Shown: piece by piece, positions 2,016-4,740 of the stretch
Layout of the letters: every line of letters begins with the position of its first letter
Numbering within the stretch: the stretch's first letter is position 1
UHGV virus genome: UHGV-0386881
Strand: one strand, 5' to 3'
DNA: 5,181 bases
From: a virus
Made by a program: the position numbers and the translations under genes
Notes under the pieces: generated by a model
The model's input: the letters and a program-made list of their open reading frames with translations, nothing else
Told to the model about the DNA's origin: nothing
The model's database searches: none

Positions 2016-3047
2016 ATGCCTCCATTTTTGCCCGCTTTAATTGGTGCTGGTGCGTCTCTTGTTGGTGGTCTTATTAACAATGAGTATGCCCAAGCTAGAA
2101 CCGATGAACAATGGGATAGAATGAATTATATGCAGGATAAAATGAACGCATATAATGCGCCCGTTGCTCAGATGGCTCGACTCCGAGAAGCTGGATTGAA
2201 CCCTAATCTTGTGTATGCTAATGGCGGTGCTGTTATGCAGTCCGCTGTTGGTAATGCTCCACAACCTCCGCATACTGCTCCGATTGATACTCAGGGAGTG
2301 TTACAGATGGTGCAGACGATTGTCGGTGCAATGCTTGAAAAGGATAAGATTCAAGCTCAGAAAGATGTTACTGAGATGCAGACTCAGTCTAGTGAGAAGA
2401 TTGCAGAAGGTCATGATACTACTCAGAAAGAGGTTACAGGCATACAGACTCAGTCTAGTGAGAAGATTGCAGAAGGTCATAACACTACTCAGAAAGAGGT
2501 TACAGGTATGCAGACTCAGTCTAATGAGAAGATTGCTTCTGCTAATCGTAAAGAGAATGCTCGTCAGTTTGATTTGTCTTTTGAACAGCAAAAGCGTGTC
2601 GATGCTATGCGTTTGTCTATTGATCGGAGTCTAGCTAATTCTCAAATAGCTTTGCATTCCTCTCAAATTGAGATTAATAATTTGTCAGCTAATTTGTCTC
2701 GTCAACTTCAGCCTTTTTTGGTTGATAAGGCTAGACTTGATGCTTTATCCTCTCAGTTTTCTTTGAGTAATGAAAAGTTAGAGACTTTTCTTTCTCGTCC
2801 GTATGAGATTTCAGTTACTGACTTAGAGAACGCTTATAAAGATGCAGGTTTATCTGTTCCTAGTGCTTTTGGATTGTCTCAAATGGTAGATTATCATAAT
2901 GAGGCTGTTAGATCTTGGAATCAAGAGGTTAAAACTAACACAAAAAAGCTTTCTGATGATGAGTTTTATTCTGGTTGGATGCATCTTTGGAATGCTATTT
3001 CTGCTCCTACTCAGATGGCTGCTTCTTTGATTTTGAAGAAGAAGTAG
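2016..3047 (+). CDS. Microviridae minor capsid / DNA pilot protein VP2 (H-like), 343 aa
   Basis: The ORF starts 8 nt after the VP1 stop. It has a Gly/Ala-rich hydrophobic N-terminus (PALIGAGASLVGGLI) followed by 'MNAYNAPVAQMARLREAGLNPNLVY' (nt ~2145-2210). This is the highly conserved VP2/pilot-protein motif (...Q..V.D...AGLNP.L). The central and C-terminal parts are Q/S/E/K-rich and predicted helical or coiled-coil, as expected for a tube-forming pilot protein. Confidence 0.85.
   Translation: MPPFLPALIGAGASLVGGLINNEYAQARTDEQWDRMNYMQDKMNAYNAPVAQMARLREAGLNPNLVYANGGAVMQSAVGNAPQPPHTAPIDTQGVLQMVQTIVGAMLEKDKIQAQKDVTEMQTQSSEKIAEGHDTTQKEVTGIQTQSSEKIAEGHNTTQKEVTGMQTQSNEKIASANRKENARQFDLSFEQQKRVDAMRLSIDRSLANSQIALHSSQIEINNLSANLSRQLQPFLVDKARLDALSSQFSLSNEKLETFLSRPYEISVTDLENAYKDAGLSVPSAFGLSQMVDYHNEAVRSWNQEVKTNTKKLSDDEFYSGWMHLWNAISAPTQMAASLILKKK
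2361..2536 (+). repeat. In-frame 66-nt tandem repeat (about 2.7 copies) inside VP2, encoding 22-aa units KDVTEMQTQSSEKIAEGHDTTQ / KEVTGIQTQSSEKIAEGHNTTQ / KEVTGMQTQSNEKIA...
   Basis: Direct reading gives 2361-2426, 2427-2492 and a partial unit 2493-~2536. Units 1 and 2 differ at only ~6 of 66 nt. Identity breaks down after 'gagaagattgc' in unit 3. The repeat keeps the VP2 reading frame. Confidence 0.9.
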
Positions 3048-3079: not shown

Positions 3080-3220
3080 ATGAATATATTTATCAACTAT
3101 GTTCTTTATCCCTTGTTGGTGATATTTTGGTTCCTTGTATTCGTATGGCTTGTTTTGCTTCTTGCAAGGTCTATATGTCGTATTATTAAACAATTTCGCA
3201 ATGGAAAAGAGAAGTTATAA
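3080..3220 (+). CDS. Hypothetical small single-pass membrane protein (46 aa: MNIFINYVLYPLLVIFWFLVFVWLVLLLARSICRIIKQFRNGKEKL). It is a candidate lysis or holin-like protein.
   Basis: This is the internal ATG of the 2975-3220 track ORF and lies 33 nt after the VP2 stop. It has a short N-terminus, a ~23-residue hydrophobic helix, then a basic C-terminal tail. Its stop overlaps the start of the next ORF (3201) by 20 nt, a compact phage-like arrangement. The ORF is short and composition-driven, so coding status is uncertain. Confidence 0.35.
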   Translation: MNIFINYVLYPLLVIFWFLVFVWLVLLLARSICRIIKQFRNGKEKL

Positions 3221-3500
3221 GTATGTGGCTAGAGAGCCACAGAGTGTAGTGTCTGATACTTTGCCAAATCAGACTGTTGACCTTAAGATCCTAGTCAAAC
3301 AATTAATGGATGGCCAGGCTCTTAATGTTGGATTATCATTGTCTGAGGACACTTCGGATACTTTAGATACTCCAGATATTACTAAGTATGATTTCCGTCA
3401 TATGACTGTATCTGATGTAGATAATCTATTGTCTAAGGTTCAGCCTGTGAAAATTGATCCTGCGCCAGCTGAGACCGGTACGGCTCCCGTAGCCGATTGA
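3201..3500 (+). CDS. Hypothetical acidic protein, 99 aa from ATG 3201 (the track ORF starts at 3135 in the same frame). It is possibly a scaffolding/VP3-like or other accessory virion protein.
   Basis: The ORF is on the + strand between VP2 and the intergenic region. The N-terminal 22 codons of the 3135 version (MYSYGLFCFLQGLYVVLLNNFA) look like out-of-frame readthrough of the preceding TM ORF. ATG 3201 (MEKRSYKYVAREPQ...) is therefore preferred. The C-terminal half is acidic and S/T/D-rich (SEDTSDTLDTPDITKYDF...). I recognise no specific family from sequence alone. Confidence 0.5.
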   Translation: MEKRSYKYVAREPQSVVSDTLPNQTVDLKILVKQLMDGQALNVGLSLSEDTSDTLDTPDITKYDFRHMTVSDVDNLLSKVQPVKIDPAPAETGTAPVAD

Positions 3501-3507
3501 TATTAAT

Positions 3508-3609
3508 GGGTGCGGGGGCTGATGGCTTGTCCATTGCCCCCCCTCACCTCTTTTGAGGTGGGGGGCAATGGCTTTGCCGAATAAGTCCTTCGGACCGCCC
3601 CCCCGCCCG
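3508..3609. repeat. ~100-bp GC-rich imperfect palindrome (cruciform/hairpin element) with homopolymer runs G5, C7, G6 and C7, flanked by TTAAT on both sides
   Basis: The left arm is attaatgggtgcgggggctgatggcttgtccattgccccccc. The reverse complement of the right arm is attaacgggcgggggggcggtccgaagg...caaagccattgcccccc. The inner core, ccattgcccccc(c)tcacctc-tttt-gaggtggggggcaatgg (3531-3570), forms a near-perfect ~17-bp stem with a TTTT loop. Outer arms pair with two T/C differences that would be G-U wobbles in RNA. GC content is well above 60%, in a genome that is otherwise ~38% GC. TTAAT sits at 3503-3507 and at 3610-3614. Confidence 0.8.
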
Positions 3610-3629
3610 TTAATAATCACGAGAGAGCA

Positions 3630-3660
3630 GGCGATTACTATTACTTGACATGTAATCGCC
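3630..3660 (+). promoter_or_regulatory. Perfect 9-bp stem (ggcgattac/gtaatcgcc) with a 13-nt loop tattacttgacat. It is a candidate rolling-circle ori stem-loop (TACTATTAC at 3636-3644) or promoter element (TTGACA at 3645-3650).
   Basis: The inverted repeat was read directly: 3630-3638 pairs with 3652-3660 with no mismatches. The stem/loop junction contains TACTATTAC, which differs from the CRESS nonanucleotide TAGTATTAC at one position. The loop contains the sigma70 -35 consensus TTGACA, with a weak -10-like TACAAA at 3670-3675 after a 19-nt spacer. Confidence 0.4.
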
Positions 3661-3691
3661 AAGTGACACTACAAATATATTTGTATCGTGT

Positions 3692-3723
3692 CTTGTCTGT
3701 TTCAATTAGTTGTAGTACATTTG
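3692..3723 (+). promoter_or_regulatory. Possible Bacteroidetes-type promoter for rep: a -33-like cTTG (3692-3695), a 20-nt spacer, then a -7 TAnnTTTG match 'TACATTTG' (3716-3723)
   Basis: The match to the Bacteroides sigmaAB consensus (TTTG ... TAnnTTTG) lies ~80 nt upstream of the VP4 ATG. This is only relevant if the host is a Bacteroidetes member. AT-rich sequence gives such matches easily. Confidence 0.2.
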
Positions 3724-3801
3724 TGCCAAGAGCAGATAACTCTTGATAGTTAAGATTATCAAAGCCTGCTTTTGGACTAAACGTATAACCCATTCTAGTA
3801 A

Positions 3802-4740
3802 ATGCTATGTATTAATCAAATTCAAGTCTTGAACCCTAAGACGGGTAAAATTATTAAAGTACCCTGCGGTACTTGTTACGCCTGTCAATCTAACAAACGA
3901 TCTAGTTGGATGTTTCGCAATACGATAGAACTACAATACGCTGAGAGTGCGTTCTTCTGTACTCTTACATACAATGATACTGCCTTGTTAGGTCTTCCGT
4001 ATCATGCTTCATCTAACTTGCGTATGCCCTTGAAATATCACTATCAACGCTGGCTTAAGCGCTTACGTAAAGCGTTACAGCCTGCTAAAGTGAGGTATTT
4101 TCTTTGTCACGAGTATGGAGACGAGTCTCTTCGTCCTCATTATCATGTTATATTATATCTAGATCGGTCGATGTCTTTGCCAGAGATGCGTGGCTTGATA
4201 TCTGATAGTTGGATCTATGGTAATATTCAATGTGATTATGTTACTCCTGCCAGGATTCATTACCTAACTAAATACGTGACTAAACAATTTCGCAATGTCA
4301 AGGTTTCAGGTCGTTCAGTGGATTATATCTTTAATCACATTTGGGCTAATAGAGATCTTCAACATCGCTATATTGTTGAGTTCTACCTTAAGAAGTTTTC
4401 TTTTGTGGTAGCAAGTCAAGGCTTAGGTTGTCAGCTCCTGCGTGAGCCTGCTTTTATTCGCTGGTTTTGGGATCATCTCGAGCCTGGCGAGTCTTATCCT
4501 ACTTATACTATCGGAGGTCATTCCTATACGCTACCGCGTATATACTTAAAGAAGCTTGTGCCTGATATATGGCGTGAAGCTATTGCCCCCGATATATCGC
4601 CCGAGGCTTATTCAGCCCGTATATCTGAACTCGCGTCTGACGCTAATCTAACTACTAAAACGTATGTGGAAAATGCGCGCTACATACAGGACAGAATGTC
4701 CGCTTCTATCCGCGCTAATAACAAAAAATCCCCTTTGTAA
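3802..4740 (+). CDS. Microviridae replication initiation protein VP4 (HUH rolling-circle endonuclease, phiX gpA-like), 312 aa
   Basis: The N-terminal 'VPCGTCYACQ' matches the Cys-rich motif typical of VP4. RCR motif I is 'FCTLTY' (nt 3955-3972). Motif II (HUH) is 'HYHVILY' (nt 4138-4158). Motif III, with two catalytic tyrosines spaced as in phiX174 gpA (YVAKYVNK), is 'YLTKYVTK' (nt 4261-4284). Confidence 0.9.
   Translation: MLCINQIQVLNPKTGKIIKVPCGTCYACQSNKRSSWMFRNTIELQYAESAFFCTLTYNDTALLGLPYHASSNLRMPLKYHYQRWLKRLRKALQPAKVRYFLCHEYGDESLRPHYHVILYLDRSMSLPEMRGLISDSWIYGNIQCDYVTPARIHYLTKYVTKQFRNVKVSGRSVDYIFNHIWANRDLQHRYIVEFYLKKFSFVVASQGLGCQLLREPAFIRWFWDHLEPGESYPTYTIGGHSYTLPRIYLKKLVPDIWREAIAPDISPEAYSARISELASDANLTTKTYVENARYIQDRMSASIRANNKKSPL

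Follow-up and report, generated by a model that had tools for sequence, protein, structure and literature searches.

Among microviruses, an origin of viral-strand synthesis is described in the searchable literature only for the phiX174 group, and experimental nick mapping for microviruses outside this group was not found there. These other microviruses dominate many viromes, including human ones. In phiX174 (Bullavirinae), protein A cleaves the DNA between G4305 and A4306 with Tyr343/Tyr347 (bioRxiv 10.64898/2026.07.25.740675), and the RefSeq record of this phage annotates a rep_origin at A4306, in the sequence CCCCCAACTTG^ATATTAATAACACTATAGACCAC / CAACTTG^ATATTAATAAC. The origin of the rolling-circle plasmid pC194 includes the heptamer CTTGATA (PMC7072734). 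For roodoodoo- and reekeekeeviruses, conserved hairpins adjacent to rep are treated in the DNA secondary structure sections of Olo Ndela et al. 2022 (PMC9865509), where their function was left open and negative-strand initiation was discussed. A hairpin origin with CTTG in its loop is not described for gokusho- or alpaviruses in the searchable literature; a mention in older work on Chp2, phiMH2K or SpV4 is possible. Bacteroidetes microvirus proviruses are known to use dif-like att sites, and Xer-mediated integration has been proposed for them (PMC3091885).

Here, we analysed a DNA stretch of 5,181 nucleotides (UHGV-0386881), referred to as the window, which is a complete microvirus genome. A preliminary description made from the letters alone had already considered it a microvirus, and the encoded Phage_F capsid, pilot-like protein and PF23343 Rep bore this out. 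The genes concerned are as follows:

101-2008, open reading frame: major capsid protein (Pfam Phage_F, E = 5e-54).
2016-3047, open reading frame: pilot-like protein, with a weak Microvir_H match below the Pfam gathering score; the homologous gene is a DNA pilot protein in GenBank relatives.
3802-4740, plus strand: rep, encoding a rolling-circle Rep of 312 amino acids (PF23343, E = 2e-18).

Five GenBank genomes from human samples share 80-84% identity with the window across most of its length, and relatives of the Rep were also found as prophages within long bacterial contigs. A reference-genome scan pointed to Porphyromonas as host, with Rep identities of 92% in uncultured Porphyromonas UMGS166 and 60% in a Porphyromonas MAG. 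From the prophage relatives and this host it follows that the phage is a temperate Bacteroidales microvirus, a type that Krupovic and Forterre have described (PMC3091885). Next to microvirus prophages with 55-60% Rep identity, we observed an HTH_3-type gene (L012, 7176-7694; L119, 5622-6095), which is placed between host genes and the prophage end and could be a phage-borne repressor or a plain host gene. Nucleotide similarity to distant rodent/capybara microviruses (75-79%) was confined to a single stretch of the window, 2128-2231, and its conservation is explained by the pilot-protein motif NAPVAQMARLREAGLNPNLVYANGG encoded there.

The element under study is a hairpin upstream of rep, which consists of the following parts:

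3630-3638, plus strand: 5' arm GGCGATTAC, perfect complement of 3652-3660, with compensatory changes at four of eight scored pairs in syntenic relatives.
3639-3651, plus strand: loop TATTACTTGACAT of 13 nt, holding the conserved block TACTTGA (3642-3648).
3652-3660, plus strand: 3' arm GTAATCGCC, pairing with 3630-3638 and covarying in relatives.
3661-3669, plus strand: conserved 3' flank AAGTGACAC, overlapping the 5' arm of the next hairpin.

The perfect stem of 9 bp, the loop of 13 nt and the CRESS-like string TACTATTAC at 3636-3644 had been reported in the preliminary description and are exact by sequence; the gap between the hairpin and the rep start codon (ATG at 3802) is 141 nt, where 140 nt had been given. 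When the 41-nt context was folded as single-stranded DNA, exactly this hairpin was obtained at -8.6 kcal/mol, compared with an average of -2.3 kcal/mol for shuffled versions (z = -4.4), one in 200 of which folded equally well. Three perfect inverted repeats (stem of at least 9 bp, loop of 3-20 nt) were found in the window vs 0.29 expected, and 27.5% of the dinucleotide shuffles of the window contained at least one such perfect hairpin. By itself, the hairpin is only modestly unusual, and it stands above chance because of its conservation and the compensatory stem changes in syntenic relatives, together with its family-wide recurrence. A second perfect 9-bp hairpin (2125-2156), which overlaps the stretch 2128-2231, is probably a chance occurrence, since its loop lacks CTTG and it is located inside the pilot-protein gene. 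The block TACTTGA occurs only once in the window. An Rfam scan of 3400-3900 gave no relevant match.

Conservation at matching genomic positions was followed in a syntenic set of 12 relatives, the Reps of which are 36-100% identical to that of the window. All 12 keep the hairpin, placed upstream of rep at a distance of 72-142 nt or at the corresponding end of the prophage. In the alignment of these hairpins 96.9% of the cells are paired, and double changes are present at four of the eight scored pairs. This degree of stem covariation was reached by none of 500 shuffles, and slid controls gave 18-52% pairing. The compensatory changes comprise G-C to A-T in L118 and L122, A-T to G-C in L012 and L119, and T-A to A-T in L122. 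Thus, the check that had been proposed for the hairpin, a covarying stem-loop upstream of VP4/rep in relatives, gave a positive result (four of eight pairs compensatory, 12 relatives), but of the two elements whose conservation had been at issue, the stem was retained and the TATTAC loop was not.

Inside the loop, the block TACTTGA (in extended form TACTTGA(T/C/A)AT) is invariant in the 12 syntenic relatives, whereas the adjacent loop bases vary, those on its 5' side reading TAT, TCC, CTA, CTAC, CAT or TCT. The five GenBank relatives keep the hairpin nearly unchanged but vary in the CRESS-like string. An extra base, usually C (TACCTATTAC), is present there in five of the six close relatives for which the upstream region can be compared; among the GenBank relatives the extra C is present in three (GGCGATTAC-CTATTACTTGACAT), PV067916 has T at that place and OP549878 equals the window. 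In place of TATTAC, relatives read CCTAC, CTATAC or CTAATAC, with TAATAC in PV067918, TCCTAC in L094 and L097, CTATAC in L118 and L012, and CTACTAC in L120. Similarly, TTGACA is replaced by TTGAAA in OP549878 and by TTGATA in L094, L097, L100, L118 and L120. The 3' flank, of the form A.xTGACA, shows little or no change in relatives with Rep identities as low as 36%, though the stem varies, and AAGTGACAC may, judging from this pattern, be a Rep-binding element. A divergent upstream region in L001, the Rep of which is 92% identical, was considered as counter-evidence to conservation and rejected, since this region is the host flank of a prophage; the divergence begins exactly at the att core.

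To the syntenic set we added a family set from an alignment-based scan of viral contigs, which yielded at least 100 further microvirus contigs with Reps 23-44% identical; the full test set comprised 119 microvirus loci with Rep identities of 23-92% among the matches listed. An exact-pattern hairpin scan of viral contigs retrieved one contig only, the pattern being too specific. Hairpins were enumerated by script, with a strand control and a permuted-motif control. Among the matches listed, hairpins with CTTG in a 6-20-nt loop and a stem of 8 bp or more were present on the rep-sense strand of 98 of the 119 loci vs 15 on the opposite strand; eleven permuted CTTG 4-mers gave 7-23 loci under the same criteria, and about 18% of the loci had no perfect hairpin under the criteria used, some of these being incomplete contigs. 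When CTTGA was required together with a stem of 7 bp or more, the numbers were 79 for the rep-sense and 9 for the opposite strand (among the matches listed). A census of all perfect inverted repeats with stems of at least 9 bp in 114 phage-size loci gave, among the matches listed, 172 repeats, of which 93 carried CTTG in the plus-strand loop and 8 in the minus-strand loop; 89 of these 93 plus-strand hairpins lay outside long open reading frames. The distinct hairpins among the matches listed (n = 86) use 56 different loop-proximal stem 8-mers, and their sequence logo reads T65% A66% CTTG A77% T84% A73% T76%, where the CTTG core is invariant by construction and the flanking positions are unselected. 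It can be seen that these flanks equal the phiX174 sequence A-CTTG^ATAT. Across the family, conservation at loop positions -8 to -6, counted from the G, is 36-42% (among the matches listed).

Depending on the clade, the hairpin is located about 70-350 nt upstream of rep, about 1.1-1.3 kb upstream of it or just downstream of it. The window belongs to the class of CTTG-loop hairpins as defined here, that is, rep-sense, intergenic, with 8 bp or more in the stem and (T)ACTTG(A/T)T in a loop of 6-20 nt. The following isolated gokushoviruses also carry such a hairpin:

Chp2, 2904-2941: stem of 14 bp, loop TCTACTTGAT.
phiMH2K, 3296-3335: loop ...CTACTTGTTG...
SpV4, 512-544: loop ATTACTTGTTATA.
Chp1, 2750-2777: loop CCTCTTGGCT.

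The hairpins of Chp2, phiMH2K and Chp1 are intergenic; the SpV4 record annotates the capsid gene only. In phiX174 the motif is present and there is no enclosing inverted repeat. As a side observation, four IMG/VR contigs (L039, L041, L079, L087) contain two CTTG-loop hairpins each, spaced by about 4.0-4.9 kb. This distance is near one microvirus genome length, which suggests that the assemblies are concatemeric or terminally redundant and that the genomes are not larger.

The conserved loop motif, TACTTGAT, is the phiX174 origin nick site (ACTTG^ATAT), and pC194 is nicked after G as well. The window itself reads CTTGACA, with C at position +2 where the consensus and phiX174 have T, a variant shared by 13 of the 86 distinct hairpins (among the matches listed). 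When compared with CTTGATA of pC194 it matches at six of seven positions, and the close relatives and the family consensus read CTTGATA. Since the conserved block is TACTTGA rather than TATTAC, the predicted nick shifts from TATT^AC to CTTG^A and would fall between G3647 and A3648. This position is derived by homology: nick specificity should be transferable because the motif is the phiX174 nick site and the Rep is homologous to phiX174 protein A. The Rep contains motif II as RPHYH (H113, H115) and motif III as Y154-LTK-Y158 (YxxxY), and the HUH motif and both tyrosines (Y154, Y158) are invariant in 26 Rep homologues. A profile of these Reps aligned with residues 181-305 of phiX174 protein A (hhalign probability 93%, E = 2.9e-7). 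A Pfam scan of the Rep returned PF23343 alone, with neither Rep_1 (PF01446) nor a helicase domain, and no iterons or direct repeats were found in 3560-3810. Because of its two catalytic tyrosines, the lack of a helicase domain and the homology to protein A, the Rep is by its sequence phiX-type and not CRESS-type.

What is established is that the hairpin exists, that its stem covaries and that its loop motif is conserved and strand-specific family-wide. We consider it probable that this hairpin is the viral (+) strand rolling-circle origin, serving both initiation and termination. In the mechanism that we propose, the inverted repeat or a displaced single strand would present the loop TATTACTTG^ACAT as single-stranded DNA, and the HUH Rep encoded 141 nt downstream would cleave between G3647 and A3648. 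One of the active-site tyrosines (Y154/Y158) would be used, Rep would stay bound to the 5' phosphate of A3648, and the 3'-OH of G3647 would be extended by the host polymerase. After one round the second tyrosine would cleave the regenerated hairpin on the displaced strand, and joining of the ends would release a circular plus strand. We infer that the hairpin forms in vivo and that Rep recognises its stem and 3' flank. Caveats to the origin reading are that duplex DNA does not readily extrude a cruciform with a 9-bp stem and a 13-nt loop and that a plus-strand-specific hairpin would also be expected of a signal on packaged or entering single-stranded DNA.

The hairpin is part of an intergenic region of about 300 nt, in which a structured element, the origin hairpin, a candidate promoter and a dif-like attP follow each other in this order. 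Its neighbours are:

3498-3619, plus strand: large GC-rich branched single-stranded DNA structure, located between the stop codon of ORF 3135-3500, which it directly follows, and the hairpin, which is 10 nt further downstream.
3665-3692, plus strand: second small hairpin (GACAC...GTGTC), the structure of which is kept in relatives with a different interior sequence.
3716-3723 (also 3676-3683): candidate promoter element TACATTTG, matching the Bacteroidota -7 element TAnnTTTG.
3776-3803, plus strand: dif-like attP ACTAAACGTAT-AACCCA-TTCTAGTAAAT, abutting the rep start codon, with its crossover core at 3776-3797.

The minimum free energy fold of 3480-3720 amounted to -57.3 kcal/mol (z = -8.7). 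In a consensus fold of 3494-3700 from eight relatives, 15 pairs showed compensatory changes and all 15 lie inside the 3498-3619 structure. By analogy with the TF-terminator/ori(-) hairpin of phiX174 (bioRxiv 10.64898/2026.07.25.740675), this structure is a candidate for the complementary-strand origin and/or a terminator. Its base also includes an exact match to the phiX174 11-mer TTGATATTAAT (3497-3507). We rejected this match as the true origin, since it is altered in four of six close relatives (e.g., CTAATTTAAAC in PV067916); ORF 3135-3500 also ends there with its stop codon, and the 11-mer makes up the base of the large stem. Exact or one-mismatch matches to the 11-mer are expected 0.34 times per window by chance, and the match is most likely a coincidence.

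On the other side of the hairpin, TACATTTG at 3716-3723 is invariant in close relatives, and TAtcTTTG is found at the equivalent place in L118 and L120. Motifs of the TAnnTTTG type occur eight times in the window vs 4.6 expected and are not statistically enriched. From its sequence, the element at 3716-3723 is the likely rep promoter. In two independent lysogens, L011 (7865-7890 and 13050-13075) and Porphyromonas UMGS166 L094 (6975-7000 and 12160-12185), a copy of the attP core is present at each of the two prophage junctions, in agreement with the dif-like att sites of Bacteroidetes microvirus proviruses (PMC3091885). No integrase gene was seen in these prophages, and the attP arrangement fits Xer-mediated integration. 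The distance from the right prophage end to the hairpin, which is intact and internal to the prophage, is about 115 nt.

A strand-specific, intergenic hairpin would also suit another signal that is read on single-stranded DNA, such as a complementary (-) strand origin used by host primase, PriA or RNA polymerase, or a packaging/circularisation signal. The ori- of phiX174 is a hairpin (bioRxiv 10.64898/2026.07.25.740675), and the rep-adjacent hairpins of roodoodoo- and reekeekeeviruses were tentatively discussed in this sense in the secondary structure sections of PMC9865509. We regard this explanation, the main rival, as unlikely. Homologous initiators (phiX174 protein A, pC194) have the conserved loop sequence as their nick site, and one loop motif is kept across Chlamydia, Spiroplasma, Bdellovibrio and Porphyromonas, which is unexpected for a host-dependent ori-; moreover, the larger covarying structure just upstream (3498-3619) is a better ori- candidate. 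Much less probable still is an origin of the CRESS type, in which Rep would nick TACTATT^AC at the 5' stem/loop junction. Such a CRESS-like stem-loop next to rep had been the leading proposal of the preliminary description, and the counted identity of TACTATTAC to the circovirus/nanovirus nonanucleotide TAGTATTAC (8/9) is correct, as is the likeness of the general stem-loop architecture. Of this proposal we retain a hairpin-presented, rep-adjacent, probable rolling-circle origin, but nick motif and initiator are of the phiX174 type. The string TACTATTAC / NANTATTAC, which had been taken as the signal, is not the conserved part, since relatives vary in TATTAC and TACTTGA is invariant, and the family as a whole shows no conservation at positions -8 to -6. 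Among the matches listed, 11 of 115 loci had a hairpin whose loop contains TATTAC, all of them the window itself or close relatives, and the form ANTATTAC occurs six times in the window and hence is not unique. A two-tyrosine, helicase-less Rep of phiX type and the lack of iterons also argue against a CRESS-type nick.

A promoter reading had been offered as the alternative, with TTGACA in the loop (3646-3651) as -35 and TACAAA (3670-3675) as -10 element of a hairpin-embedded sigma-70 promoter for rep. The -35 hexamer is perfect and TACAAA follows 18 nt further on, but a consensus scan of 3400-3900 gave no promoter-like site on the plus strand. TTGACA is the T-to-C variant of TTGATA, the form present in most of the family, and in relatives the hexamer and TACAAA are 24 nt apart owing to a different interior of the following hairpin, so that neither the hexamer nor the spacing is conserved. 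In addition, the host Porphyromonas belongs to the Bacteroidota, the main sigma factor of which reads -33 TTTG / -7 TAnnTTTG and not TTGACA / TATAAT, and the conserved TACATTTG at 3716-3723 is at hand. We therefore abandoned the sigma-70 promoter as highly improbable. The temperate lifestyle and the dif-like attP just about 115 nt away bring the integration apparatus into play, be it as a second Xer/dif-like site or as a folded attP as in CTXphi, and an additional dif-like site close to one end is known from some Bacteroidetes microvirus proviruses (PMC3091885). This explanation is hardly credible, since the prophage junctions map to 3776-3797 with the hairpin intact inside the prophage, its geometry is 9 + 13 + 9 nt and not 11-6-11, and gokushoviruses known only as isolated phages carry the same hairpin. 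The same mapping of the prophage junctions (core at 3776-3797, hairpin internal) led us to reject the hairpin as the attP itself.

With a rolling-circle origin as the preferred reading, a wider proposal can be put forward, which we hold tentatively and with slightly more doubt than conviction. All or most microviruses outside the phiX174 group, including gokushoviruses, temperate Bacteroidales-infecting microviruses and many unclassified clades, may share one previously unannotated origin, a covarying hairpin with the loop TACTTG^ATAT; the hairpin form would be ancestral and would have been lost secondarily in Bullavirinae when the origin moved into gene A. The element is apparently unannotated across a very large virus group, and the class of mechanism is familiar. 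An exact nick prediction, after the G of TACTTG, is cheaply testable. If the shared origin is true, the nick site and a natural 'position 1' become predictable from sequence for thousands of metagenomic microvirus genomes. Possible uses are a principled start coordinate for microvirus genome records and a cis element for replicons or phagemids in Bacteroidota, Chlamydia and other hosts. The 300-nt intergenic region of the window can be viewed as a compact control module.

When the locus is compared with known systems, the hairpins of roodoodoo- and reekeekeeviruses (PMC9865509) are by their description similar to it: they also occur in small microviruses, in intergenic positions close to rep, and combine conserved loops with compensatory substitutions in the stem; the DNA secondary structure sections of that paper draw no link to the phiX174 nick motif. 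CRESS-DNA origins (circo-, nano- and geminiviruses; NANTATTAC) likewise have, next to rep, a short intergenic hairpin whose loop presents the nick motif and whose stem covaries. Unlike them, the locus has the loop motif TACTTGAT instead of TAGTATTAC and a different predicted nick position, the window is without iterons, and its Rep has no SF3 helicase and two catalytic tyrosines instead of one. With the double-strand origins of pC194/pUB110-type plasmids it has in common rolling-circle replication via an HUH initiator and the sequence CTTGATA, which is the family consensus here. The plasmid initiators, in contrast, are Pfam Rep_1 proteins whereas this Rep is PF23343, and replicon context and copy control differ. 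The origin of phiX174 differs in lying within gene A without an inverted repeat, whereas the motif here sits in the loop of an intergenic hairpin of 9-16 bp; furthermore, the 30-nt tripartite phiX174 origin is matched in its first part only, its AT-rich spacer and downstream key sequence being absent here. On the other hand, the nick core ACTTGA is present in the window and ACTTGATAT of the relatives matches at nine of nine positions, the HUH initiators with their two tyrosines (YxxxY) are homologous, and the strand polarity is the same. The origins of phiX174, of pC194 and of the hairpin type would thereby be linked in one evolutionary picture.
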